NCBI GenBank assembly: GCA_044238365.1
Contig: JBIIDM010000001.1
Location: 8,769 to 72,768 of the forward strand
Source of the DNA: Bdellovibrionota bacterium
GTDB taxonomy: Bacteria > Bdellovibrionota_C > UBA2361 > JBIIDM01
Length of the DNA stretch: 64,000 bases
Reading direction: 5' to 3'
The position numbers and the translations under genes were made by a program. Position 1 is the stretch's first letter. The number at the start of each line of letters is the position of its first letter. The notes below the pieces were generated by a model. That model saw only the letters and a list, made by a program, of their open reading frames with translations. It did not search any database and was not told where the DNA came from. Shown one piece after another: positions 1 through 53,194 of the stretch.

Positions 1-687
1 CATTGCAGTGGTCACCAAAGTCATATGAAACGGCGGCTCCGGGAGAGACTCCCGGTGAAATGCCAGCCACTCCCCAATTTCCGGCGGTACTGCTAAAAAT
101 GGACCGGTGTATTGTTGCGCAATTGCTGCCCATGCAGGCGGAAGGTCAGAACCGGGAACCCCTCCAACGCCTACTCCGACGCCCGTCGTAACGACGCCAG
201 GCGCGCCACCACCAGGTGCGCCACCGCCAGGCGCGCCACCGCCAGGCGCGCCACCACCAGGCGCGCCACCACCAGGCGCGCCACCACCAGCGACTATTCC
301 ATTTGGTCCAGCAGAACCAAGCACTATTCCAAACGCCTGCGTGGTTGCCGGAGGCTGCTCACTGGCGCCCTCTATGTAGTACTCCATCTGTAACCGCTCA
401 AGGCGAACTCCCTGGGTGGTAATGTTATTGCGAACAGTCAAACAACTCTGGGATCCGATTACAGCCCCCTCAAGATTATCTGCATTGCTAAGTGACACGA
501 CAACGCCACCTGAAAATACGTCGGGCTGACATACTTTAGATGCATCTACACTATTATAGGAAGTCATTGTAACCGACATACCCTGATCGTTCGTCGCCCC
601 GCCCCCGCCGCATCCCGCTGACGCGAGAAGCAAAGAAGCTAAAAGTGCCTGAGAACTGTATTGTTTCTTACTCGTTAAACTTTTCAT
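1..687 (-). CDS. Lipoprotein with a Gly-rich (GGAPG)n repeat, immediately downstream of pilQ. The 5' end is at 687 and the gene runs off the left edge of the window.
   Basis: I translated the minus strand myself. ATG at 687-685 sits 9 nt after a GGGGG Shine-Dalgarno-like motif that directly follows the pilQ stop. The N-terminus MKSLTSKKQYSSQALLASLLLASAGCGG is a classic lipoprotein signal with lipobox. The frame stays open with no stop all the way to position 1. It contains (GGAPG)x6 encoded by a 15-bp tandem repeat. The plus-strand ORF 107..379 (Pro-rich) has no signal or RBS and is rejected. Confidence 0.55.
   Translation of the reverse strand, partial: MKSLTSKKQYSSQALLASLLLASAGCGGGGATNDQGMSVTMTSYNSVDASKVCQPDVFSGGVVVSLSNADNLEGAVIGSQSCLTVRNNITTQGVRLERLQMEYYIEGASEQPPATTQAFGIVLGSAGPNGIVAGGGAPGGGAPGGGAPGGGAPGGGAPGGGAPGVVTTGVGVGVGGVPGSDLPPAWAAIAQQYTGPFLAVPPEIGEWLAFHRESLPEPPFHMTLVTTAM
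197..289. repeat. Tandem repeat, 6 units of 15 bp (ccaggcgcgccaccR), each containing a GGCGCGCC core.
   Basis: Direct reading gives units at 197, 212, 227, 242, 257 and 272. It encodes a Gly-Gly-Ala-Pro-Gly repeat in the minus-strand lipoprotein. Confidence 0.9.
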
Positions 688-702: not shown

Positions 703-3225
703 TTAAATCGTCGCTTTCATTGCGGCATCATCAAAACTACCTTCGACAATGCGCGGAGTAACAAAGAATAGCAGTTCTTCATCTTTGTTAGTTCCATTTG
801 CTCTTCTAAAAAATGTCCCAAGTACTGGAATATCTTTAAAAAACGGCAATCCATTAAGGTCAGTCTGATCCGTTGTCTTGTATATTCCTCCGAGGGCAAA
901 AGTCTGCCCGCTGGAGATAAGGACCGATGAACGAGCACTTCTCTCAACTTCAGACGGAATCCCGTCTACTGACTGATTACCAAGTGTACTTGACTTCGCA
1001 TTCAGGTCGAGAAGTACATAATAATCGGGTGAAGCCTGGGGTGTAACAGTGAGAACAATACCAATTTCTATTGTCTCGGTAGCCGAATTTCCTTGACCTG
1101 CTGCACTTGCACCTTGTCCAGTCGCTACCGATACCCCCCCTTGTGGAAGTCGAATTCTTATCTTTTCAATGCTCTTGATAACCGCTGGTTTATTGTTGGT
1201 TGTCGCTACCGCCGGACGACTAATTATTCTTACCGTTCCTTCCTGCTCCAGCGCCGTCACAACGTCACTTAAGCTCTTGGTTCCATCGGCACTTCCCAAA
1301 AGTAAACTTACTGCATTGGTCGTTGATGCCGCAGCGTTATTCAACGTTCCTCCGATCTGCACGCTATTAGGAAATGATGAGCCGGTTGCGTTTCCGGTCT
1401 GAGGCGATTGTATGAAATTAAACCCCAACTGCGATCCGATATCCCTCAAAAGATTCCGAGTGGCTTCAACAATCTGCGTTTCAAGCAAGACTTGCGGAGT
1501 CCGCAAGTCAATCTTTGAAACAAGTTCCGCAACATTTGTCAGCCCACGTTTAGTGTCTCGTACGATTATCTGGTTAGTACGTTCATCGTAGCTGACCAGT
1601 CCCCTTTCGGTAACAACGCTATCAACCAGGGGCTTAAGCTCGGCAGCCCGCGCGTAGCTAACTCTCAGGTATTTTACATCTAACTCCTCGAGTTGCTCCT
1701 CTGCCTCCCTAGCTTGCTTTAATGCCTCTCTCTCATTCTTTAACCGCTCAACCGGCGCGATTCTAACTACATTTCCCTCTTGAACCTTATCTAGACCATT
1801 GGTCTTTAGTATAACGTCCAAAGCCTGGTCCCAAGGAACGTCAATGAGCCTAAGCGTAACCTTGCCAGTAACATCTTCACTCGCTATGATGTTGAGATTA
1901 GATACCTCGGCGATGATTCTTAAGGCATTGTCGATATCGGTTTCCTGCAAGTCCAGGGAGATAAGCCGTCCTGTATACTTCGGCTGATCTCCAAGGAATT
2001 TTTGAAAGTCGGGACCTTCAGAACTTCCACCCGTCGGAACAATATCAGCATCACTTGCGGGAGCTGCTTCGGGTACGTCCTTGGAAGCCGCTGCCTCTGT
2101 TAAGGCTTCAGGTTTTGCCTGCGCTCGAACATCATCGCGACCCTCGACACTCGACATAATGGACAGACTTCCATCCTGCTCAGGACTTACGTCGATGCGG
2201 CTTTCAGGCTTGGCGAATATCCTCAAAACTGTGTCACTACCTTCAGTAGTTGCTCTCACAGCCCTAATTAGCCCCTCTGAGCTTTTCGAAATAACCGGAG
2301 TTGGCGTGGACTGTTCGACTGAAGTACCAAAAATCCTGACAATGAACTCTGAAGGAGCCGTTCGGCTAACCTTGTACATAGGGGAAATTGTCGACGTCTT
2401 TGCTATAATCGTGTTGCTACCTCCCAGGGCCTCGACTATTTTCAGGTCGGTAAGAGCGCCAGTGTTTCTCGCCGTATCATTGGTTATGGAAGCTACTTCA
2501 GGAGTTGCCGATTGGATATCATCTGTTTCTAGCTTCGCATTATCATGTCCAACCTTCTCGGAGGTTATTGTTTCATGGATTGCCGGAATATTCAAAGCCG
2601 GAGTCGTCGTCGAAAGCGCGATCATGTCCGTTGCGACCTCACTCGCTGTCACTTTCGGCTGATACGCAGCATCACGAACCGTAACGATCAACCCGCCGGT
2701 TACCTCAGTGATTTCCGATCGCACACTCCCTACCCCTCCTGGAGTCAGCTCTATCACGACTCGAGTTGCCCCAAGCTTAGCTAAATGGCTTCCCGACGCG
2801 ACTCTTACGTCCTTGATAAACCGAGATCCTTGAACGCCGCCAGAAAGAGGCTGCAACGCAACCTTCTCCTTAAAGTCAAGTACTATTCGGTCCGGATTAG
2901 TCAGCTTGGTGCTTTCTAACTTACCAAATTTCGCCGCACCTGCTATAAAAATGCGATCGATATTGGCGCCTCTTAACAGCGTTATTTGCGAGGAATCCTC
3001 TCCTGAAGAGAATAAATCAGTTACCCCTTCGAGCTCACCTGCTCGAGCTAAATAGGTCGAACTAATCGTACCAATACCATCCGTCTTTAAATGGCTACTA
3101 TCGCTAATGCTTTGCGAAGGCATTCCTTTCTCATTCCTCGTTGTAGCACAACTAAAGAGCAAGGATGCGGAAGCGCAAACTACCACTGCACGATTTATCC
3201 GTCTGCTCACGTCACGTGATCTCAT
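703..3225 (-). CDS. pilQ: Type IV pilus secretin PilQ.
   Basis: 840 aa. The N-terminal signal/lipobox-like segment (LLFSCATT) is followed by AMIN-like repeats. The C-terminal secretin domain is present (VVRIAPVERL ... GLPFFKDIPVLGTFF ... VTPRIV). A GGGAGAG RBS precedes the ATG. It lies downstream of pilMNO. Confidence 0.9.
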   Translation of the reverse strand: MRSRDVSRRINRAVVVCASASLLFSCATTRNEKGMPSQSISDSSHLKTDGIGTISSTYLARAGELEGVTDLFSSGEDSSQITLLRGANIDRIFIAGAAKFGKLESTKLTNPDRIVLDFKEKVALQPLSGGVQGSRFIKDVRVASGSHLAKLGATRVVIELTPGGVGSVRSEITEVTGGLIVTVRDAAYQPKVTASEVATDMIALSTTTPALNIPAIHETITSEKVGHDNAKLETDDIQSATPEVASITNDTARNTGALTDLKIVEALGGSNTIIAKTSTISPMYKVSRTAPSEFIVRIFGTSVEQSTPTPVISKSSEGLIRAVRATTEGSDTVLRIFAKPESRIDVSPEQDGSLSIMSSVEGRDDVRAQAKPEALTEAAASKDVPEAAPASDADIVPTGGSSEGPDFQKFLGDQPKYTGRLISLDLQETDIDNALRIIAEVSNLNIIASEDVTGKVTLRLIDVPWDQALDVILKTNGLDKVQEGNVVRIAPVERLKNEREALKQAREAEEQLEELDVKYLRVSYARAAELKPLVDSVVTERGLVSYDERTNQIIVRDTKRGLTNVAELVSKIDLRTPQVLLETQIVEATRNLLRDIGSQLGFNFIQSPQTGNATGSSFPNSVQIGGTLNNAAASTTNAVSLLLGSADGTKSLSDVVTALEQEGTVRIISRPAVATTNNKPAVIKSIEKIRIRLPQGGVSVATGQGASAAGQGNSATETIEIGIVLTVTPQASPDYYVLLDLNAKSSTLGNQSVDGIPSEVERSARSSVLISSGQTFALGGIYKTTDQTDLNGLPFFKDIPVLGTFFRRANGTNKDEELLFFVTPRIVEGSFDDAAMKATI

Positions 3226-3765
3226 GAATTCTCTCCCTTCAAACGAAACTTCCTATTCAGCCGAGGGGAATCTACAGACTTTCATTACAAGTCGGTAAAA
3301 GCCACTCCAAACCGATTATTCAACTATTGACACTTGTCTAATTACGACACACTTCTTTTGCTGTACAACCGACCAATAGACTAAAACCTAATGGCTAAAT
3401 CAATTCCCACCTTAAATGCAGTCTGCCAACGTTACCATCGCGATAAGCGCCGCCAATTTCTCCTACTAGAAAACCGCCCTAGCCTGAGTACGCGCACCAG
3501 AAGTACATTTTGGAATCGAACAACTACAAACAATTAAAAATAACTTTCTTGACTCTAAAGCATTAGATCTCTCGTGACCACTATCTTTTTTTGTTTAAGA
3601 AAAAAAATCAGCGCCACGTCCAATAAAACTTCGTTCTTATCTATGTTTCTTAGCGCGATGACGATCAAATTTGCATTAAATGAAGGCTCCCAGACGCGCA
3701 GTCGACAAAAAGCCTTGCATGCTCAAGAGTGTGAGTGCAATGGCTGGATTTGTTAAAAATAGCTA

Positions 3766-4404
3766 CTACTCTCTTGGTCCCTTAGCTCCCTTTAACTTCG
3801 CTTCTTTTTCTTCCTCAAGCTTCTTTTTTTCCTCTGCAGTCAACTGTCTAAATGTAGTTACCAGGCACGATGTTCTCACCTTCATACTTCCCGGAATTCC
3901 CGTTAGTGGATTCTCCATGGATATTTTTGTAATATTCACTATACGATCTAACCGACCTACTTCGTCAAAAAATGTAGCAACTTGATGGTATGTTCCCAAG
4001 ACTTCAACGCTCACAGGTAATTCTACATAGAAATCTTTCGCTACTTCGTTCTCCTTTTTCCAGAGCTGAATATCAAGTCCTGCTGATTTTGCTAAACCGG
4101 ACAACGTAGAAAGCAACCTACCCATCTCTTCCATCTCCGGTAACTCCCTTTCTGCAGCAGCCACCCGATCTTCGAGCTTTCCCTTCAAATCTTTAAGATA
4201 TTTGAGATGTTTTTGCTTAATTTTAGCCTCTGCGACGTCCGATTTGAGTTTTTGCACTCGCTCGTTCATTTCGTATATTTCAGTTATAAACGCCGAAAGA
4301 ACAAAATAATACGAAAAAAAGCTAATGAATAAAATACTTCCAATCCATCCAGCTATGAGATGAGACTTGGGTCTCTCACTCAGACTATCGATAATATCAG
4401 CCAT
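3766..4404 (-). CDS. pilO: Type IV pilus assembly protein PilO.
   Basis: 212 aa with an N-terminal TM segment, then a coiled coil, then a conserved PilO-like core (YHQVATFFDEVGRLDRIVNI). It overlaps pilN by 8 nt, indicating translational coupling. Confidence 0.75.
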   Translation of the reverse strand: MADIIDSLSERPKSHLIAGWIGSILFISFFSYYFVLSAFITEIYEMNERVQKLKSDVAEAKIKQKHLKYLKDLKGKLEDRVAAAERELPEMEEMGRLLSTLSGLAKSAGLDIQLWKKENEVAKDFYVELPVSVEVLGTYHQVATFFDEVGRLDRIVNITKISMENPLTGIPGSMKVRTSCLVTTFRQLTAEEKKKLEEEKEAKLKGAKGPRE

Positions 4405-5035
4405 TTTTGTCCTTCAGCTCTTTAACAGTGACATCCTTGCCAGTGGACTTTGGCTTGCCGGCGCCCTCAAAACTGACAGCTGCTTCTATTAGAAACTTCG
4501 AGACCTTGATGTCCTTAAAGTCCTCTTGTGTAATTTCCACGATGGTCACCTTTGGAAAAAAGTCAGACTGCCCCAAGTCCTCCACGAACATTGAAACCAG
4601 GTCATTCTCCAGTGCATAACCGCTTATTTTCATTCCACCATCTGACGATTCGGAAATTTCACTGAGCCATGACTTATCGGGAATCGCTAAATTTATGCTG
4701 TCAAGAACCTGGACCGGGCCCTTTTTGCTCTTCTTTAACTGAGCGATGATCTGTAGCCTCTTCTTCAACTCATCTCGTTGTTTTTCGAGATTTGCGACCG
4801 CGGAGGTGTCTTTCTCTAATAATGCCTTTCTCTTGTTTAGATCGTCTTCTTGCGCACTCAATTCACTAAGAGCCGATCCGTAAGAAAAAACCAGGAAGAC
4901 TACTAATGAGATTACGCCTAAAATAGACATACCGGACAGCAAAAGATAGAGTTTGAATTTCGCTCTGTCTTTTCCCTCTTCTTTGATTAAATTTATACGA
5001 ATCACTCGTATCCTCCAAAAAAAACTAGGTATCAA
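4397..5035 (-). CDS. pilN: Type IV pilus assembly protein PilN.
   Basis: 212 aa with the N-terminal motif RINLIKEE (PilN INLLP-like), a single TM segment and a coiled coil. It lies between pilM and pilO. Confidence 0.75.
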   Translation of the reverse strand: MIPSFFWRIRVIRINLIKEEGKDRAKFKLYLLLSGMSILGVISLVVFLVFSYGSALSELSAQEDDLNKRKALLEKDTSAVANLEKQRDELKKRLQIIAQLKKSKKGPVQVLDSINLAIPDKSWLSEISESSDGGMKISGYALENDLVSMFVEDLGQSDFFPKVTIVEITQEDFKDIKVSKFLIEAAVSFEGAGKPKSTGKDVTVKELKDKNG

Positions 5036-5048
5036 AACAGATATTCTC

Positions 5049-6110
5049 CTAGTCTACTGACTCCTGGCGATCACCAAAAGATCTCTGAGCTAGGCCTACA
5101 GTCTGAGCAAACTGACTACACCGACTTATCAATTGGTCCTTATCCAATCCATCTGCAAAATTAACGCGGGTAAAGGGATCTAATATTGAAACATCACACC
5201 CCAGCTCTTCCCTCAACTTCTCAATCAAACCACCTAACAAACTAGTTCCTCCACTAAGTAAGACATTATCGATGCCCCCCTCAGCGCCCGAGGCATTCCA
5301 AAAATAACTCAGCTGCCTGCTAAGCTCCGAAACAGAATGTTCCACGAACTCTTCTACAATCAACGAAGCCTTTTCATCGGTGAGATTTAATTTTAATTTC
5401 TCCGCCTCTTCGATTGATATCTCCATCTCTTTTGAAATCTCCTCTGAAATAGTTTTTCCTCCGAGCGATATATCTCCTGCAAAAAGGCAATTTCCACCTC
5501 GGCAGATGTTGATTCCAGTGTATCTACCCCCTATATTGACCAGTGAAACTGTTTTTTCGACTAGAGAAGGATAGTTAAACTCAAAGCAGTTTTGCAAAGC
5601 AAACTGATCAACATCAACAATCCCGACGCTTAAACCTGCCTCATCAAATACTTCCACAAAGCGATCCACAACATCTTTCTTAACTGCAACTATCATAACT
5701 TCGTAATGATTCTTTCCTGCTTTGCCGATTACATGAAAATCAAGATAAACACTGTCTGCACCATGAGGAATAAAATTTGGAGCTTCAAATTCAATATGCT
5801 CACGCATTTCTTCTAGGTCCATGACCGGCAACCTCTGCTTCTTAGTGAATACACTAGGAGCAGGAACAGCTGTAACGATTTTCTTGTCCTGCAGGGTATA
5901 CTTCTGAGAAATTTCTCGGAGTAGATCGGCCACCTTTTCTACTCTCGAAATGGTGTTCTGTGCAAACACGTCAAAGCCATATTCAAAGTGACCAAAATTC
6001 ATAATAGTTAAAGAGTCATCTGCCCCCCTATCAACATCAAGCAGTTTTATCGCTGTTGCCCCAATATCGATGGCGATATATTTGTGCCTCTTTTCGAAAA
6101 AATTAATCAT
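5049..6110 (-). CDS. pilM: Type IV pilus assembly ATPase-fold protein PilM.
   Basis: 353 aa with an actin-like/FtsA-like fold signature (IAIDIGATAIKLL, GGGTS-like C-terminal motifs). It is the first gene of the pilMNO-Q cluster. Confidence 0.85.
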   Translation of the reverse strand: MINFFEKRHKYIAIDIGATAIKLLDVDRGADDSLTIMNFGHFEYGFDVFAQNTISRVEKVADLLREISQKYTLQDKKIVTAVPAPSVFTKKQRLPVMDLEEMREHIEFEAPNFIPHGADSVYLDFHVIGKAGKNHYEVMIVAVKKDVVDRFVEVFDEAGLSVGIVDVDQFALQNCFEFNYPSLVEKTVSLVNIGGRYTGINICRGGNCLFAGDISLGGKTISEEISKEMEISIEEAEKLKLNLTDEKASLIVEEFVEHSVSELSRQLSYFWNASGAEGGIDNVLLSGGTSLLGGLIEKLREELGCDVSILDPFTRVNFADGLDKDQLISRCSQFAQTVGLAQRSFGDRQESVD

Positions 6111-6486
6111 GGGGTAGCCTCGATTATATGCGTCCGTTTACTAGCCCGAATGAGGCCTGCTTCTATAGGATTCAGGGCACTATAGATCTGTCATGCTTTT
6201 TTAAACTTTAGACCTAAAAAGTACTAAAACAAACAGAGGTCAAAGAAATAAAAATACTCGATATGTTCAGCGTCTTGCCTAATTAGGCGTCTTTTTGTTA
6301 AGAATCAGGTATAACCCTCTCTAAGCCAACGAGCAAGCTAAGAATTGAGCGGTCCATTCAATCAAAAATGTAGCTAATAAGTAAGTTACCACGACTTTCA
6401 TCGCCTTGAACACGACAAAATGCTGAATTAGTGTATCATTTGCCTTCTGGAACATGCGCTAAGGCTGTTTACCACTTTCCCATCGG

Positions 6487-6569
6487 CTAACTTTGCAACC
6501 TAAGTTTCGGATAAGAAAAAAGGTAAGTGACTAAAGCAATTTTAGTCACTTACCTTTTTTCTTATCCGA
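6487..6569. repeat. Perfect 39-bp inverted repeat with a 5-nt loop (mini palindromic element). Its ends are related to the termini of the 180-bp MITE-like elements.
   Basis: The sequence aacctaagtttcggataagaaaaaaggtaagtgactaaa / gcaat / tttagtcacttaccttttttcttatccgaaacttaggtt was read directly. The arms resemble the element A/B terminus aacctgagttcgacgtaagaacaaaggtaa. Confidence 0.9.
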
Positions 6570-6688
6570 AACTTAGGTTGTCAGGTATTTTCCAGGTAGG
6601 GCGGCGTGTTAGAACACGTTTTGGAGCAGCTCAAATCTAAGGATGGCAATAATACAATTTTTTGGTGCTATATAGTGTCTACTCGATT

Positions 6689-8161
6689 CTAAGCCATTGA
6701 AGAGCGGGCTCGAAGGGCTGTTACCAGTTCTTGGGGAAGACCATCGAAGGAACCATTTGACATAAGGAGAACAATATCTCCCGTCCTTAGCTTAAGAAGA
6801 AGCGTTTTAATTATATCATCTACTGTAATGAGGGAGTACGCTTCCTTGCCGTGATTACGCAAGATTCCGGCTATCTCAGCCGTATTCAGGAGGTTCTCGA
6901 CCGAATCGTTATGTCGGGAAACCACTTCCTTTATAATGATTCCATCCGCAAACTTTAATGCTCGTTCGTATTCAGCCTGAAACACTCTGCGACGACTGGT
7001 ATTTGACCGCGGATCGAAAACAGCCCAGACCCTTGATTCCGGGTTGGCTGCCTTGACGCTTTTTAATGTTGCTGACACCGCTGAGGGATGATGGGCAAAA
7101 TCCTCAATTACCTGGACTTCCTGATCCTGATATAACATGGTAAGCCGTCGCTTTACGCCCTTAAAAGTTGAAATATGTCGAACAATATCCCCTAGGGGAA
7201 GTCCAATCGAAAGTAGGGAAACAATTCCTGCAGCAGCGTTAAGCGCATTATGAGAACCAATAAGCGGTATCCATACCGAAACCTCCTCTTTGGCTGCACC
7301 GGAGATGACGAAAGAAGTCCCAGCTTTATCTATTTTGATATTACCAATCCTCCAGTCGTTCGCAACCTCCTGACCATACGTTACCAGCCTTGCCGCGGAG
7401 CTCCTTCTCCATTTAGGTAAAAGAGACTTTATAGTTTCGTCATCCCCACACAATACGACCAAATCACCACTCGAGCGGCTGGACACCAAGCTGTCAAAGA
7501 CTTCAACAATGGCATTTAAATCCGAATAAATGTCAGCATGATCATATTCGATGGATGTTATAATCAGAATTCGTGGATCGTAAAAACTAAACTTTGGCAC
7601 CTTCGCAAAAAAGACCGAGTCGTACTCATCCCCTTCCAGCACTGTTTCACGTCCAGTACCGACACAAAGACTCCTATTCAGCCCCTCGATTTTAGCACCT
7701 ACGAAATAACCAGGTACACGATCTGCTTTCATTAAGATATGCGCAACAAGGGATGTTGTTGTTGATTTTCCGTGCGTCCCCGAAACAACAATCGGAAATC
7801 TCTCATTCACCAACAGATCGGCAAGGCAGGAGGGAAAACAAGTATAATTCAACTTCTGCATTTCTACATGCTGAACCTCTGGATTATCCGCACTTACCGA
7901 ATTTCCAATAATAACCAGCGATGCGTCGCCTGGAATATTATCTTTGTCGTAGTGATTAAATAGCGAAATGGCACTTTCCCGCAGAAGTGATGCCATGGGA
8001 TCATAAAATTCTTTATCACTCCCAGAAATCATAAATCCTAAATCTGCCAAGACCAAACCAAGTTGCCCCATCGCAACACCACAAATGCCGATGATATGAA
8101 TCTTTCCACCCTTGTTTACATTCTGAAGTTCCGTAACGCCACTAACACTAAAATAGACCAT
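6689..8161 (-). CDS. mpl: UDP-N-acetylmuramate:L-alanyl-gamma-D-glutamyl-meso-DAP ligase (murein peptide ligase, Mur ligase family).
   Basis: Mur-ligase N-terminus KIHIIGICGVAMGQLGLVLADLG is Mpl-like rather than MurC-like. A GTHGKSTT P-loop is present. The likely start is the internal Met (MVYFSV) at 8161, which removes the overlap with the upstream gene. The ORF track gives 6689..8197. Confidence 0.6.
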   Translation of the reverse strand: MVYFSVSGVTELQNVNKGGKIHIIGICGVAMGQLGLVLADLGFMISGSDKEFYDPMASLLRESAISLFNHYDKDNIPGDASLVIIGNSVSADNPEVQHVEMQKLNYTCFPSCLADLLVNERFPIVVSGTHGKSTTTSLVAHILMKADRVPGYFVGAKIEGLNRSLCVGTGRETVLEGDEYDSVFFAKVPKFSFYDPRILIITSIEYDHADIYSDLNAIVEVFDSLVSSRSSGDLVVLCGDDETIKSLLPKWRRSSAARLVTYGQEVANDWRIGNIKIDKAGTSFVISGAAKEEVSVWIPLIGSHNALNAAAGIVSLLSIGLPLGDIVRHISTFKGVKRRLTMLYQDQEVQVIEDFAHHPSAVSATLKSVKAANPESRVWAVFDPRSNTSRRRVFQAEYERALKFADGIIIKEVVSRHNDSVENLLNTAEIAGILRNHGKEAYSLITVDDIIKTLLLKLRTGDIVLLMSNGSFDGLPQELVTALRARSSMA

Positions 8162-8162
8162 A

Positions 8163-8816
8163 CTATTCCCCAATAAATTTCTCGTATAACTGCGCATATT
8201 CGATGTCTAACGCGTCATATCTTCGTTTCAGTTGAAAATAATGATCATTTCCCTTCGCTATCTGCGCTAACAGATCACCTATTTGCTCCTGTGAGTAAAG
8301 TAGTTCTTCTTGCATATCGTTTAGAAGCCGCGTTTGATCTTCTGTCATGGCTACCTCACTTCTAAGTTTCTCCAAGATACTCAGAGACTCATTAATCTGG
8401 TCCTTTAACGCTTCGTTGCGGAGCCTTAGCTCTTCCTCCCGGCCTTTAAGAATGTTAAGCTCTCCCTTGCTCTCGACTTCGCTGGCATCAAGTTCTCGTT
8501 CTGTTTCATCAAGCTCTCGCAGCCTCAGCTCAACGGATTCAAGTTCAACTTTTGCTATTGCAGCCCTACCTCTCTCCGCCTGTATAATATCTCCATGCTC
8601 GACAATCGACGAAACAACTACTTTCATCTCGTCAAATGGTACCAGATGCCCCTTAAATAACTCTATTCGGTCTATTACACCTTTACGTTCGACTAATATA
8701 TCACTTAAGCGTTGAAACTGATGACCCTGAGCATCCACCTTTCTCTTTGCAAAAAACCAGAAGATCCCAACAAGGAGTAGCGTTTCCACTAGTGCACATA
8801 TCAATATTAGAATCAT
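8163..8816 (-). CDS. Hypothetical membrane-anchored coiled-coil protein.
   Basis: 217 aa with an N-terminal TM segment (LICALVETLLLVGIFWFF) and a long heptad-rich E/L/R region. No recognisable enzymatic motif. Confidence 0.45.
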   Translation of the reverse strand: MILILICALVETLLLVGIFWFFAKRKVDAQGHQFQRLSDILVERKGVIDRIELFKGHLVPFDEMKVVVSSIVEHGDIIQAERGRAAIAKVELESVELRLRELDETERELDASEVESKGELNILKGREEELRLRNEALKDQINESLSILEKLRSEVAMTEDQTRLLNDMQEELLYSQEQIGDLLAQIAKGNDHYFQLKRRYDALDIEYAQLYEKFIGE

Positions 8817-46557: not shown

Positions 46558-49032
<2,475 letters not shown>

Positions 49033-49137
49033 TCATTAGCGCCTTCTGTCACCAGAGTCCCGCCCAACTCCGGTCATTCCCAGCTACAGATATCTAAATC
49101 GAGCAAACCAACCTTGAGCAGCTCGGAAAGAACGCCA

Positions 49138-50199
49138 TTATAAAAACAAAACATCAAAACCTTCGTTCTGTATACTATCGGCCAGTTCCAGGTTGGTCGA
49201 GGTAACAAATACCTGCCATCCTGTAGCCCTTATTACGCGAAGTAAGGACCTTCTACGTTTTTCATCAAGTTCAGAATCAACATCATCAAGAATAAGAACA
49301 GGGGTCTGATGAAGGGAATTAGATAGGTTTTGGGCCGTTGCTACCGTGAGCGCCAATGTTGCAGCCCTTATTTGCCCCTGCGATCCGAACTCCTTAATAG
49401 GCCTCCCACCCATCAGGATCTCCATATCATCAAGGTGGATGCCGATTTGAGGACGTCTGAACCGAAGCTCTTTCTGCAACTGTCTCTCTAATGTGCTGAA
49501 AGCCTCCTGCTCAGATCGAACTACACCAAAGGTTGTCACGTATCTTATTTTGAGATCAACTCCCTCGCCGAATAGCTCTTGAAACACCACCGAAAAATTT
49601 GCATTAAGCTTATCGATTACTTCGTATCGACGCTGAATTATCTCCCAAGCTGATTTTGCAAGTAACTCGTTCCACGTTCTAATATCTGAAGGATTTGCGC
49701 CTTGTTTAAGCAGCGTTCTCTTATGGGCAAGTGTTCGACCATAAAAATTGTACAGCTCTATTAAAGGTGGATTAAGTTCAATAATATGTTTATCAACGAG
49801 CCCCCTCCGTACGACTGCCCCTCCCTTTACGACTCCCAGACTATCAGGGGAAAAACCTATCACCAGAAAACTGCCCACAAAATCCTTGATCTTGGTAATT
49901 AACTTACCATCCCGAGATATCTGCCGTCGCCCGGACTCGACCGTTACTGACAAATTAAAAGAACCAATATCATCGGAACAAAGACCCGAAACTATAGCTG
50001 CAGAGTTTTCATGTTTAATAAGTGCCCGAAGCTTTGAACGCTTCAATGAAACTCCTGTCCCTAACAGATAAATCGCCTCTACCAGATTCGTTTTTCCTCT
50101 ACCATTTTGAGATAGAATAAAATTCAGGCCCCCTCCAAATGAAAATGAGTTTTCCGCAAAGTTCCTAAAATTCTGTAAATACAATGATCGTATCTGCAA
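49138..50199 (-). CDS. recF: DNA replication and repair protein RecF.
   Basis: The Walker A is GQNGRGKTNLVEAIY. It sits in the conserved position between dnaN and gyrB. Confidence 0.9.
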   Translation of the reverse strand: MQIRSLYLQNFRNFAENSFSFGGGLNFILSQNGRGKTNLVEAIYLLGTGVSLKRSKLRALIKHENSAAIVSGLCSDDIGSFNLSVTVESGRRQISRDGKLITKIKDFVGSFLVIGFSPDSLGVVKGGAVVRRGLVDKHIIELNPPLIELYNFYGRTLAHKRTLLKQGANPSDIRTWNELLAKSAWEIIQRRYEVIDKLNANFSVVFQELFGEGVDLKIRYVTTFGVVRSEQEAFSTLERQLQKELRFRRPQIGIHLDDMEILMGGRPIKEFGSQGQIRAATLALTVATAQNLSNSLHQTPVLILDDVDSELDEKRRRSLLRVIRATGWQVFVTSTNLELADSIQNEGFDVLFL

Positions 50200-50214
50200 A
50201 ATCTTCCCCTTCGA

Positions 50215-51324
50215 TTACTCAATTCTTATCGGCATTACCATGGCTATTGAGTGTTCATCATCGCAAGGGTAGAATCTGGCTGGCTCATTTCCATTCAATA
50301 TTTCAATAACGATCTTTTCTGATATCAAAAACGAGCTAACAACATCTATAAGGAACCGAGCATTGAAACCAACACTGATTGGTTCATCGGTACCAACAAT
50401 GACCAACCGTTCTTCACTCTCTCCAAGCTCTGGACTACGGCTTGATATTCGCATGCTATCCTCTGCGATGTCGACCCTTACCCCCTGCCCCTGAGAGGCA
50501 AGGATAAGCGAAACACGGCGCAATGCGTCAGAGAACTCCTGGACCAGGATTTCAATCTTGACTCCTGAGGACTTGGGAAAAGCCCGAGCATAATCGGGAT
50601 AATCAACATCCATAAGACGAAGCGCAAACTTTGAGGAATCACTCTTAAAAACGACAAACCCCCCTCCGAATCCAACTTCAACCTCTTTAAGATGACCATC
50701 GTCAAAAACTCTACGTAGTTCAGAAAGGCCTCTTTTAGGGAAAAGCACCCTATGCCCAAGCCGCAAATCGGGGATATCTCTAGTTGAAAGCGCAAATCTA
50801 TGTCCGTCAGTGGCAACCATAGTTACCCTTCCATCGGAAGTCGGTTCAAAACAAATACCACTCAAATTAAACTTAGCCTCATCATGAGAAGCCGCATAGA
50901 TAGTTCTGTTGATCATTTCAGCAAAAATACGGCAATCGATCTTCCGATCTGTCACCAGGTCTAATCCCGGAATTTTTGGAAACTCAAGAGCGCCCAGCAC
51001 ATTCAATTTATATTTGGTGGTATTAGATTTAATTTCAAGCTTTTTTGCGTCCGAGAGTGAAAGATTCATCAAGCCTGTCGGCAGCTGGCGAACAACATCG
51101 GCAAACATCTTTCCGGGGACTGAAAATGTAGCTGATTGCTTTACTTCGGCAGGTACTTGCATAGAAACAGAAACTTCCAGATCCGTCCCCGACACTTCTA
51201 TTTGCCCATTATCTATCCGCACTAAAAAATAAGACATAATCACAAGAGGAGATTTTTTGCCTATAAATGCCTGGAGTGTATTCAAGGCCTTCGACAAATC
51301 ATCCTGCTGAACGACACACGACAT
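50215..51324 (-). CDS. dnaN: DNA polymerase III beta sliding clamp.
   Basis: 369 aa with a three-domain beta-clamp pattern. It lies directly downstream of dnaA. Confidence 0.9.
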   Translation of the reverse strand: MSCVVQQDDLSKALNTLQAFIGKKSPLVIMSYFLVRIDNGQIEVSGTDLEVSVSMQVPAEVKQSATFSVPGKMFADVVRQLPTGLMNLSLSDAKKLEIKSNTTKYKLNVLGALEFPKIPGLDLVTDRKIDCRIFAEMINRTIYAASHDEAKFNLSGICFEPTSDGRVTMVATDGHRFALSTRDIPDLRLGHRVLFPKRGLSELRRVFDDGHLKEVEVGFGGGFVVFKSDSSKFALRLMDVDYPDYARAFPKSSGVKIEILVQEFSDALRRVSLILASQGQGVRVDIAEDSMRISSRSPELGESEERLVIVGTDEPISVGFNARFLIDVVSSFLISEKIVIEILNGNEPARFYPCDDEHSIAMVMPIRIE

Positions 51325-51637
51325 AAAAGACTCCTATATCTAGATTAAATATATATATTCATAGTAGTAGTAGTAGTTAGGTGTGGTTTCTGTTGATAGA
51401 CTGCCTAACTAATTGAAACAGTAGAACTTCCCAGGCTCGGTTGTTGTGGTTTTTAGCTTGGCGTATTCCCGGGTTATGCCCACAAAAGCATTTTGTGGAC
51501 TATCTAGATATAGATAGTCCACAGGTAGTGCGTAGGTTTTCCACAGGAATTACCGGAAAAAACATAAAAAAATCAACAAGATGGCTCCGTTGATAACAAA
51601 ACCACCGCTTGCGACAATCTAAAATCAGAAACATTCT
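51325..51637. promoter_or_regulatory. Candidate oriC in the dnaA-dnaN intergenic region.
   Basis: DnaA-box-like 9-mers were read directly: TTTTCCACA at 51537-51545, and the inverted pair TGTGGACTA (51494-51502) / TAGTCCACA (51515-51523) around a TCTAGA core. An AT-rich stretch taaatatatatattcatagtagtagtagtag (51345-51376) could act as an unwinding element. Gene orientation and plus-strand G+T richness switch around this locus. Confidence 0.55.
51362..51376. repeat. (TAG)5 trinucleotide microsatellite within the candidate origin.
   Basis: tagtagtagtagtag was read directly. Confidence 0.9.
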
Positions 51638-53194
51638 CTAGCTGAAAAGTTTCCTTTCTATTTCGGAGACAAGTTCTCTCACAGAAGCCTCGTCGCTGAC
51701 CTTGTTTGCGACGACACTCGCGGCGTGGATTACGCTGGAGTGGTCTCGTCCGCCAAATTTTTCGCCAATCTCGGGGTAGGAAGCTGTTGTATGTTTCCTG
51801 CAGAGGTACATGGCTACATGTCGAGGAAACGAGAGATTTTTTGTCCGTCGTTTAGATATTATTTCTGACACTTTGATTGAGAAGTGTTGTGCTACCGCCT
51901 TCTTGATGTCCTCTATGTTGACTGATATTTTTTTCGGTTCTAGTAGGGGTTTGAGGGCCACTTGGGCCATTTGCAGCGTAATTGGAACCTTCTGCAGGCT
52001 GCTAACGGCATGCAATCTGGTTAGTGCTCCCTCTAATTCCCTAACGTTTGAGGAGATATTCTCGGCTATAAGGTATGCAACGTCCTCGGGAAGGTGAAAG
52101 TTCTCAAGGAGAGCTTTGCGTTTAAGAATTGCAGCTCTAGTCTCAAAATCTGGCGCTTGCAGATCCGCCGTTAAGCCCCAGGCAAAGCGGGTCTGAAGCC
52201 GCTCTTCAATTCCATCAATTTCGGAAGGAATTTTGTCAGAAGTCATTACGATCTGACGCTTGCAACTATAAAGGGCGTTAAACGTGTGGAAGAACTCTTC
52301 CTGGGTTCTTTCCTTTCCGCTTATGAACTGAATGTCGTCAATAAGGAGTATCTCAATGCTTCGTAGCCTTGTCTTGAATTCCTCCATTTTTGCGTTCCGA
52401 AGCGCCTGAATGAGCTCATTCGTAAAGGCCTCAGAAGAAATATAAAGCACTTTCGAGTTGGGGTTTCGGCTGAGAGCGGCATTTCCAATCGAGTGTAGAA
52501 GGTGTGTTTTGCCAAGCCCTACGCCGCCGTAGATAAATAGAGGGTTGTAGCTTTCACCTGGTTGTTCAGCGACTCTACAGGCAGCGGCGTTACAGAATTG
52601 ATTGTTGCTTCCAACTACAAAGCTTTGAAAGGTGTATTTGGGGTTTAGGTTGTTGAAAGTGTGGTGATCGTTTGGCGTACTGGTAGATTCGACGGGCTCG
52701 GCGGTGGGACTGGCGTGGCGTCGTTTTATAACGGTTCGAGATGATCCATCAAGTTGGCTTGCTAGTAGCGATTCATTTGGTGCCTTTGGTTCCTGAACAA
52801 CGTACGTGAGAATCAAGTTGGGAACGTTAAGCAATTCCTTAAGAAGCGTTTCTATTCGCCGGGAGTAGTTTCGCTCTATAAGTTGGCACTGAAGTTTTGT
52901 CGGCGCAGAGATTGTTAGGGCTGTTTCGTCAAATTCCCTTACGTCACCTTCTGTAAGTTCAACGATTAGCGGTTCGAAGTATGCGGAAAAGGCATGTTGA
53001 CCTACTTCGGTCTTAATCACCTCCAACATGTCATTCCATGCGTTTACTACTAATCCTTCGTGAATGGGTTCTCGGACAAAAGGTACGCCGTTTTGAAGTT
53101 GGTTGTAGGTGGTGTTCTCTCTAGTTGTGTTTTTGGTTGTGTCACTAGTAGTTGACTGGGTTGTTGATAAAAATAAATCTGGCGCAATATTCAT
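51638..53194 (-). CDS. dnaA: Chromosomal replication initiator DnaA.
   Basis: The AAA+ Walker A is GGVGLGKTHLLHSIG. The C-terminal DNA-binding domain carries GGRDHSSVIHA. The N-terminus has a T/N-rich low-complexity ~50-aa extension before domain I. Confidence 0.95.
   Translation of the reverse strand: MNIAPDLFLSTTQSTTSDTTKNTTRENTTYNQLQNGVPFVREPIHEGLVVNAWNDMLEVIKTEVGQHAFSAYFEPLIVELTEGDVREFDETALTISAPTKLQCQLIERNYSRRIETLLKELLNVPNLILTYVVQEPKAPNESLLASQLDGSSRTVIKRRHASPTAEPVESTSTPNDHHTFNNLNPKYTFQSFVVGSNNQFCNAAACRVAEQPGESYNPLFIYGGVGLGKTHLLHSIGNAALSRNPNSKVLYISSEAFTNELIQALRNAKMEEFKTRLRSIEILLIDDIQFISGKERTQEEFFHTFNALYSCKRQIVMTSDKIPSEIDGIEERLQTRFAWGLTADLQAPDFETRAAILKRKALLENFHLPEDVAYLIAENISSNVRELEGALTRLHAVSSLQKVPITLQMAQVALKPLLEPKKISVNIEDIKKAVAQHFSIKVSEIISKRRTKNLSFPRHVAMYLCRKHTTASYPEIGEKFGGRDHSSVIHAASVVANKVSDEASVRELVSEIERKLFS

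Follow-up and report, generated by a model that had tools for sequence, protein, structure and literature searches.

The pil cluster and the junction between pilO and pilQ

The stretch of DNA analyzed here, which we call the window, comprises 64,000 nucleotides of contig JBIIDM010000001.1 (assembly GCA_044238365.1), assigned to a Bdellovibrionota bacterium. Near its left end lies a type IVa pilus cluster of four genes, pilM, pilN, pilO and pilQ, all of them intact and all on the minus strand, in which the slot between pilO and pilQ holds no pilP and instead contains 540 bp of non-coding DNA (positions 3226 to 3765, read on the minus strand with the genes). In diderm bacteria, the alignment subcomplex of the type IVa pilus is treated as having PilP among its core parts. 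The comparisons described below indicate that pilP is missing from this slot throughout a clade of relatives, and that about half of the spacer is conserved as non-coding sequence in a manner that points to a control region for pilQ, the gene of the secretin.

The first gene of the cluster, pilM (5049 to 6110), encodes 353 amino acids (aa) and matches the Pfam family PilM_2 (PF11104, actin-like) over its full length with an E value of 9.3e-67. It is followed by pilN (4397 to 5035; Pfam PilN, PF05137, E = 2.8e-15), which has 212 aa when read from a TTG start and 202 aa according to the gene callers, and by pilO (3766 to 4404; 212 aa; Pfam PilO, PF04350, E = 1.7e-33), which ends in the double stop TAGTAG. 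The pilN and pilO genes are adjacent and co-oriented, with an 8-nt overlap at the start of pilO. On the far side of the spacer, pilQ (703 to 3225) encodes an 840-aa secretin with AMIN, STN/N0, Secretin_N (N1) and Secretin domains in Pfam, and the protein scores 322.8 bits against the NCBIfam model of the type IV pilus secretin PilQ (TIGR02515, cut-off 284.35). Pfam, NCBIfam and the listing of open reading frames (ORFs) all agree with a preliminary description of this DNA, which had reported the four co-oriented genes and a 540-bp slot without pilP. Residues 1 to 26 of PilQ (3148 to 3225) read as a predicted signal peptide ending in a lipobox (…LLFSC, Cys26). The JGI gene call for PilQ starts at Met35 and gives 806 aa, so that the lipobox signal is dropped; other callers give 840 aa.

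The distance from the pilO stop to the pilQ ATG is exactly 540 bp. In a listing extended down to 20 aa, the longest start-to-stop ORFs on the gene strand of the gap have 37 and 33 aa and both begin with TTG. Each of the three gene-strand frames contains approximately 10 to 13 stops, and stop-to-stop stretches reach about 55 aa. The preliminary description had spoken of peptides shorter than 15 aa, which is wrong, yet its statement that the gap contains no PilP-sized ORF holds. It had also called the gap AT-rich, with runs of T8, A7 and A8. The guanine-plus-cytosine (GC) content is 0.406, compared to a window mean of 0.451, a mild bias that is ordinary for the intergenic DNA of the window, where other intergenic stretches range from 0.38 to 0.45. 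The T8 (3600 to 3607) and A7 (3586 to 3592) runs are real, and both fall within the most conserved block of the spacer; the A8 run is the T8 run read on the opposite strand. Only four intergenic stretches of the window are longer than the spacer; the median spacing of co-directional junctions is 40 bp, and 3 of the 38 such junctions are at least 500 bp long. The same 540-bp spacing recurs in L002, which Logan assembled independently from another run, and in a JGI/NCBI contig; the gap is therefore genuine and not an assembly artefact.

Absence of pilP from the slot in a clade of relatives

Related loci were fetched by PilO similarity, and a further 80 came from scanning metagenomes with an alignment of PilO; all were sorted after correction for over-extended pilQ ORFs in high-GC contigs. 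A search of a genome collection yielded a single locus, a distant one from Myxococcales. Relatives at a wide range of distances have no pilP between pilO and pilQ. The gap measures 930 bp in the P0003 contig (PilO identity of 85%), about 970 bp in L003 (84%), 354 bp in L011 (77%), 1080 bp in L005 (55%), 98 bp in L008/L009 (47%), 146 bp in L013 (39%) and 2021 bp in L015 (39%). The scanned loci form two groups, one in which pilP abuts pilQ and one in which pilP is absent and the spacers are of 84, 173, 315, 338, 344, 354, 368 or 481 bp. In the sister loci that were checked, pilP abuts pilQ or lies within about 10 nt of it, and pilMNOPQ is nearly devoid of intergenic DNA. Six-frame ORF listings and gene maps revealed no conserved ORF in the slot of the window or of any close relative.

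The grouping was recovered in two neighbor-joining trees, each calculated from a single protein. In the PilO tree the pilP-less loci form one clade (GC of 35 to 52%), and the sister groups (GC of 51 to 73%) all have pilP. In the tree of PilQ, based on 358 C-terminal columns, all 11 of the 11 pilP-less tips are monophyletic, in 94% of 50 bootstraps. Many metagenomes, of freshwater, soil, marine and wastewater origin, contain the pilP-less clade. A gene in the neighbourhood has homologues in metagenome-assembled genomes (MAGs) labelled “Bdellovibrionales bacterium,” “Candidatus Dadabacteria bacterium” and “Pseudomonadota bacterium,” and relatives have flagellin beside the pil cluster.

From these comparisons it appears that pilP went from the slot once, in the common ancestor of a diverse uncultured clade, whether by loss or by relocation, and that the length of the junction has drifted since. 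Because spacers within the pilP-less clade range from 84 to 2021 bp, the pilP-like size of the 540-bp gap is a coincidence. The picture of a pilP-sized hole in one genome, as drawn in the preliminary description, was thus misleading; the comparison of the locus among relatives that it had proposed yielded a pilP-less slot common to the whole clade.

Several of these loci have features of their own. In L015, the junction contains a 2-kb insert (6631 to 8651) with a C5 cytosine DNA methylase (PF00145) on the opposite strand and a 64-aa ORF, so the pilO-pilQ junction tolerates the insertion of a gene. L003 has about 430 bp of extra spacer DNA, which includes a 43-nt imperfect inverted repeat (7152 to 7263; 81% complementary, with a 26-nt loop). 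In L097, a distant pilP-less locus from a Pseudomonadota-labelled MAG, the genes at the pilM and pilO positions (4143 to 6103; 281 and 137 aa) have no recorded Pfam match, and synteny is kept in the order priA, pilMNO, a 344-bp gap, pilQ, the genes of two lipoproteins designated A and B (discussed below) and accBC.

PilP itself was sought with a local profile whose 26 seed ORFs, taken from the pilO-pilQ slot of related metagenomic loci, have the RDPF motif and the beta-domain; two of these seeds, checked against Pfam PF04351, pass at 58 and 46.5 bits. The profile was run with the HMMER filters off (--max) and E≤10, on stop-to-stop segments of at least 25 aa. It recovers PilP in every pilP-bearing locus, with E values of 1e-17 to 1e-78, the PilP ORFs of related loci being 141 to 268 aa long. 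It has no match in the spacer or in the six-frame translation of the whole 64-kb window, nor in L002 to L016, L019, L020, L022, L024 to L026, L037, L076 or L097, and it finds no PilP within 6 to 10 kb of the cluster in the pilP-less relatives. Translated in all six frames, neither the window spacer nor the 1080-bp spacer of L005 gave a Pfam family at E≤1, and none of ten small or secreted window proteins scanned against Pfam is PilP.

A hidden or alternative-start pilP ORF in the gap is ruled out by the ORF listing down to 20 aa together with the three-frame translation, and a PilP elsewhere in the window by the Pfam scan of the ten candidates together with the six-frame profile search. No PF04351-type protein was detected near the cluster, either in the 64 kb or in the sampled flanks of relatives. 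The preliminary description had also held that the gap is not a recognisable pilP pseudogene, and in this it was right, as Pfam, the PilP profile and the ORF listing are all without trace of one. It is possible that PilP is encoded beyond the 64 kb, as in cyanobacteria, or that it has been replaced by another adaptor.

Conserved blocks upstream of pilQ

When the spacer is compared with its closest distinct relatives, L003 and L011, only two segments can be aligned, together 278 of the 540 bp. Block A (3502 to 3645, minus strand) is a conserved non-coding element that holds the T8 and A7 runs and has a 71-bp core at 3536 to 3606. Block B (3226 to 3359, minus strand) consists of the 134 bp directly upstream of the pilQ ATG, the pilQ-proximal leader or promoter region. 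Measured over 72 bp, the Block A core is about 93% identical to L003, and an exact 35-mer within Block A is common to L002, L003, L004, L011 and L012; the block is single-copy in the window. When the window, L011 and L003 are compared in pairs, Block B is 80 to 86% identical across some 135 non-coding nt, and, taken with the start of pilQ, it is 90% identical to L003. Searches with nhmmer find the blocks in near relatives only, with E values of 1e-36 to 1e-40 for Block A and 1e-40 to 1e-43 for Block B. Outside the two blocks the spacer is unalignable, with large indels between relatives.

A neutral yardstick is provided by the same genomes, in which the four-fold degenerate sites of pilO and pilM are 27 to 39% identical, i.e., saturated, with whole-gene nucleotide identities of 74 to 77%. 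As a control, the region upstream of pilM (6111 to 6330) was compared among the window, L003 and L011 and is conserved only around the ribosome-binding site. Saturated four-fold sites and a barely conserved pilM upstream region show that Blocks A and B, and hence about half of the spacer, are under strong purifying selection. The difference between that almost unconserved region and the 80 to 93% identity of the blocks makes the constraint specific to the control region of the secretin. A regulatory motif common to the spacer and the pilM upstream region was looked for and rejected, since only a chance-level 10-mer is shared.

The blocks do not encode protein, because the substitutions seen are non-synonymous and the short ORFs vary or are absent among relatives. 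Specifically, both of the substitutions in the Block A core would be non-synonymous in the sole open frame, and antisense ORFs at Block A range from 13 to 60 codons among relatives. A conserved leader peptide in Block B was considered and rejected: the window has a 10-codon upstream ORF, L003 an in-frame extension of it, and L011 no start codon.

Candidate promoter hexamers are present in Block A, namely, TGGTCA (3575 to 3580) and TAGAGT (3552 to 3557), separated by a 17-nt spacer. Both core substitutions fall in the 17-nt stretch between them, as would be expected for a promoter. Block B includes the Shine-Dalgarno sequence of pilQ, AAGGGAGAG (3231 to 3239), and a possible hairpin at 3257 to 3315, the consensus of which is kept in all three sequences. 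The 3′ arm of this hairpin contains a pyrimidine stretch, UUCCCCUC (3263 to 3270), which is complementary to an upstream GGAG(U/C)GG and partly also to the Shine-Dalgarno sequence. A translational switch that operates through the pairing of UUCCCCUC is conceivable.

Taken at its narrowest, the analysis supports the conclusion that pilQ has in this spacer a cis-regulatory region under constraint, which would uncouple the secretin from pilMNO. The fuller reading, in which the 540 bp form a genuine regulatory spacer within a type IVa pilMNO-pilQ cluster and supply pilQ with its own promoter and leader, we consider probable, although with a good deal of room for doubt. The identity of the blocks as promoter and leader, the exact hexamers and the independent transcription of pilQ we infer from the sequence. 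An internal promoter or a small RNA (sRNA) in the spacer had been suggested in the preliminary description; the conserved blocks favor a control region, and a structured sRNA is not supported.

A possible course of events is as follows. The pilP gene would have left the pilO-pilQ slot in the ancestor of the clade, and the opened junction would then have evolved fast in length through indels, palindromic inserts and, in one relative, a methylase cassette. Block A would most likely be the pilQ promoter, with the T8 and A7 tracts upstream acting in the manner of an UP element. A transcript that started there would have a pilQ leader of about 315 nt, of which Block B would be the conserved 3′ 134 nt, with the hairpin and the ribosome-binding site. 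The pilQ gene, and probably also the lipoprotein genes behind it, would in this way be expressed and controlled apart from pilMNO.

A number of results weigh against a dedicated pilQ promoter and leader. A consensus scan of 3100 to 3900, in which promoters were required to have at least 9 of 12 hexamer matches and a 16- to 18-nt spacing and terminators a GC-rich hairpin followed by a T-run, returned no sigma-70-type promoter and no intrinsic terminator. The candidate hexamers of Block A match consensus at 8 of 12 positions only. Transcripts of pilMNO may read through into pilQ, since the scan placed no terminator behind pilO. The blocks are carried by only three distinct sequences, which makes covariation nearly uninformative. 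Two pairs are changed on both sides, one of them within the hairpin of Block B and the other within a small stem upstream, and the three Block A sequences have no compensatory pairs and a positive covariation term. Blocks A and B were not found in L005, L015, L008, L013 or L099, and their absence from distant pilP-less relatives limits the proposed mechanism to the sub-lineage of the window. In the case of L099 (PilO 63% identical), no Block A is visible in the 226 bp available after pilO, a contig too short to inform.

Other explanations of the spacer were weighed against the promoter-leader reading. The conservation of Block A might be that of an independent sRNA gene or an antisense transcript rather than of a pilQ promoter, given that its core of about 70 nt is more conserved than the neighbouring protein-coding genes and that it lies about 310 nt upstream of pilQ, at a distance from Block B that varies among relatives, as would fit a separate unit. 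Against this, folding was no better than that of dinucleotide shuffles for Block A on either strand (z of -0.20 and -0.32) or for Block B (z of 0.01), pairing between the two blocks stayed within the shuffled controls, and Block A has neither compensatory pairs nor a terminator on either strand. A structured RNA in Block A or Block B was rejected on these grounds, with z about 0 and no useful covariation in three sequences. Rfam 15 gave no gathering-score match in the whole window, and only chance-level matches (E of 1.4 to 7) in 2900 to 4100, which also eliminates a known RNA family or riboswitch, including the cyclic di-GMP riboswitches that often adjoin pilus genes. An sRNA gene therefore seems to us quite unlikely. 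The spacer might alternatively be mostly junk that insertions and deletions of mobile or selfish DNA have left in a permissive junction, with pilQ read through from the pilM promoter. The plasticity of the junction (spacers of 84 to 2021 bp), the methylase gene and 64-aa ORF of L015, the extra DNA of L003 with its 43-nt inverted repeat, the unalignable remainder of the window spacer and the lack of a predicted terminator after pilO would all be accounted for in this manner. Against it, conservation in 278 of the 540 bp is well in excess of that at neutral sites and in the control region upstream of pilM. The spacer also has no similarity to plasmid or phage DNA and no repeats or terminal inverted repeats, and Block A is single-copy in the window; a dispersed repeat or miniature inverted-repeat transposable element was rejected for the same reasons. 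We regard the junk explanation as unlikely.

Two further explanations would return a gene to the slot. One is that the spacer is a decayed pilP pseudogene, inactivated in this genome, whose remains fill the slot. Its length is close to that of a pilP gene, as judged by the 141- to 268-aa ORFs of related loci, and the gene-strand excess of G over C is similar to that of the flanking genes. However, no leftover similarity was found in any frame, either by Pfam or by the clade-tuned profile, and half of the spacer is under purifying selection as non-coding sequence. The slot, moreover, lacks pilP throughout a deep clade with spacers from 84 bp up, so that a decay would have to be old and not peculiar to this genome, and a pseudogene is very improbable. 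The other is that assembly or gene calling went wrong and the gap conceals a real gene, a concern raised by the metagenomic origin of the assembly and by the disagreement of callers over the start of pilQ (806 versus 840 aa). The identical spacing in the Logan assembly of another run and in the JGI/NCBI contig argues otherwise, as do the homologous spacers that carry the same blocks in different samples (L003/L004 and L011/L012) and the six-frame ORF listing, which yields nothing conserved; the chance of such an artefact is negligible.

Genes after pilQ, other features and comparison with known systems

Wherever a pilP-less locus is sequenced far enough, lipoprotein A and then lipoprotein B come after pilQ, often with a small tetratricopeptide repeat (TPR) protein as a third. 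Lipoprotein A has about 240 to 320 aa with a variable Gly/Pro-rich insert, and lipoprotein B about 340 to 380 aa; the lipoprotein status of both is read from their sequences. The window contains the 5′ part of the lipoprotein A gene (1 to 687, minus strand), 229 codons that are cut by the window edge and that begin with a signal peptide and lipobox in translation. Its GGAPGG-type Gly/Pro repeat lies at approximately 107 to 379 on the minus strand, where the local GC content is 0.70. Lipoprotein A matches no Pfam or NCBIfam family, and lipoprotein B and the TPR protein have weak, sub-threshold matches only; the TPR protein has a weak, below-cut-off resemblance to pilotins.

Whether any of these proteins could stand in for PilP was considered from their distribution and from predicted structures. 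Lipoprotein A does not simply replace PilP, since three loci that have pilP encode a weak homologue of it after pilQ. Lipoprotein B occurs, within the flanks sampled, only in the pilP-less clade, and it is predicted to have two beta-sandwich domains joined by a Gly-rich linker. The model of lipoprotein A (predicted local distance difference test score of 63, with 80 to 93 in the core) gave generic beta-sandwich matches only and comes from a shallow alignment, since the homologue search returned only 4 proteins and was swamped by the Gly-rich insert. When the post-pilQ proteins A, B and C were aligned to the PilP profile with hhalign, the probability was below 2%, and a comparison of lipoproteins A and B with the GspC-HR/PilP beta-domain gave no PilP-specific match. 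Two other substitutes were rejected: a longer PilO tail, because the C-terminal tails have equal lengths in both clades, and a clade-specific lipidated PilQ, because the lipobox N terminus is conserved in the pilP-less and the pilP-bearing clades alike.

Replacement of PilP by lipoprotein A or B is possible. A more elaborate proposal would have the pilus built without PilP, a post-pilQ lipoprotein (with B as lead candidate) bridging PilN/PilO to the N0 domain of the secretin, and pilQ and the lipoprotein genes set apart from pilMNO by Blocks A and B; we find it doubtful.

Elsewhere in the window, the 578-bp spacer between a Mur-ligase (mpl-like) gene and pilM contains an 85-nt palindrome at 6496 to 6580, an inverted repeat whose 40-bp arms match perfectly around a 5-nt loop. 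This palindrome occurs once in the window and in none of the fetched relatives, not even the 84%-identical L003, and Logan contig L002 ends at about its position. The region from 46558 to 53194 looks like the neighbourhood of a replication origin, with gyrB (46558 to 49023) and dnaN (50215 to 51324), as named by source annotations, recF-like and dnaA-like ORFs beside them, and then spacers of 313 and 420 bp.

The cluster shares with the canonical type IVa pilMNOPQ operons of Pseudomonas aeruginosa, Myxococcus xanthus, Neisseria and Bdellovibrio bacteriovorus HD100 the order, orientation and domain families of pilM, pilN, pilO and pilQ, and its overlap of pilN and pilO resembles that of translationally coupled operons. 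It differs in two respects. The canonical operons have pilP (PF04351) between pilO and pilQ, whereas the slot here has no gene. They are also tightly packed as single operons, whereas here, by the reading of the sequence, pilO and pilQ lie 540 bp apart across partly conserved non-coding DNA. We therefore describe the cluster as a member of the type IVa pilMNO(P)Q family that lacks pilP in its slot and the tight packing. The practical consequence for annotation is that a pilP-sized gap, in this case, is not a missed gene.

Exceptions to the canonical arrangement occur elsewhere. Thermus thermophilus reportedly has a pilus and competence cluster, pilMNOWQ, without a PilP-family protein in the slot. 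There, the position is taken by the protein-coding pilW, whereas here it holds no gene. The predicted signal peptide of PilQ, ending in a lipobox cysteine, recalls HxcQ of P. aeruginosa, a self-piloting lipoprotein secretin, or “liposecretin.” However, PilQ has the lipobox in the pilP-bearing sister clade too, and the absence of pilP is therefore not explained by it. PilP occupies the slot in cultured Bdellovibrio, and a secreted protein lies there in Bacteriovorax (supplement of PMC6060248).

The closest precedent is that of the cyanobacteria, nearly all of which have a pilMNOQ cluster without a PilP homologue and encode a longer PilP homologue elsewhere in the genome (review PMC12288463). 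Here, likewise, pilM, pilN, pilO and pilQ are clustered without pilP. This precedent, together with the possibility of an unlinked pilP, limits the surprise of the arrangement. The lineage is a different one, with flagellin beside the cluster in relatives and MAG labels of Bdellovibrionales, Dadabacteria and Pseudomonadota, and the clade thus provides a second large example, beside the cyanobacteria, of intact pilM, pilN, pilO and pilQ genes under purifying selection with no pilP in or near the cluster. It offers a defined set of genomes for examining the relocation, replacement or dispensability of PilP. Neither a long, partly conserved spacer nor lipoprotein genes after pilQ are part of the cyanobacterial description. 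The strongly conserved pilQ control region and the conserved set of lipoprotein genes that follows pilQ are features not previously described, and the pilQ-upstream blocks, which are more conserved than the genes around them, give a testable handle on separate regulation of the secretin.

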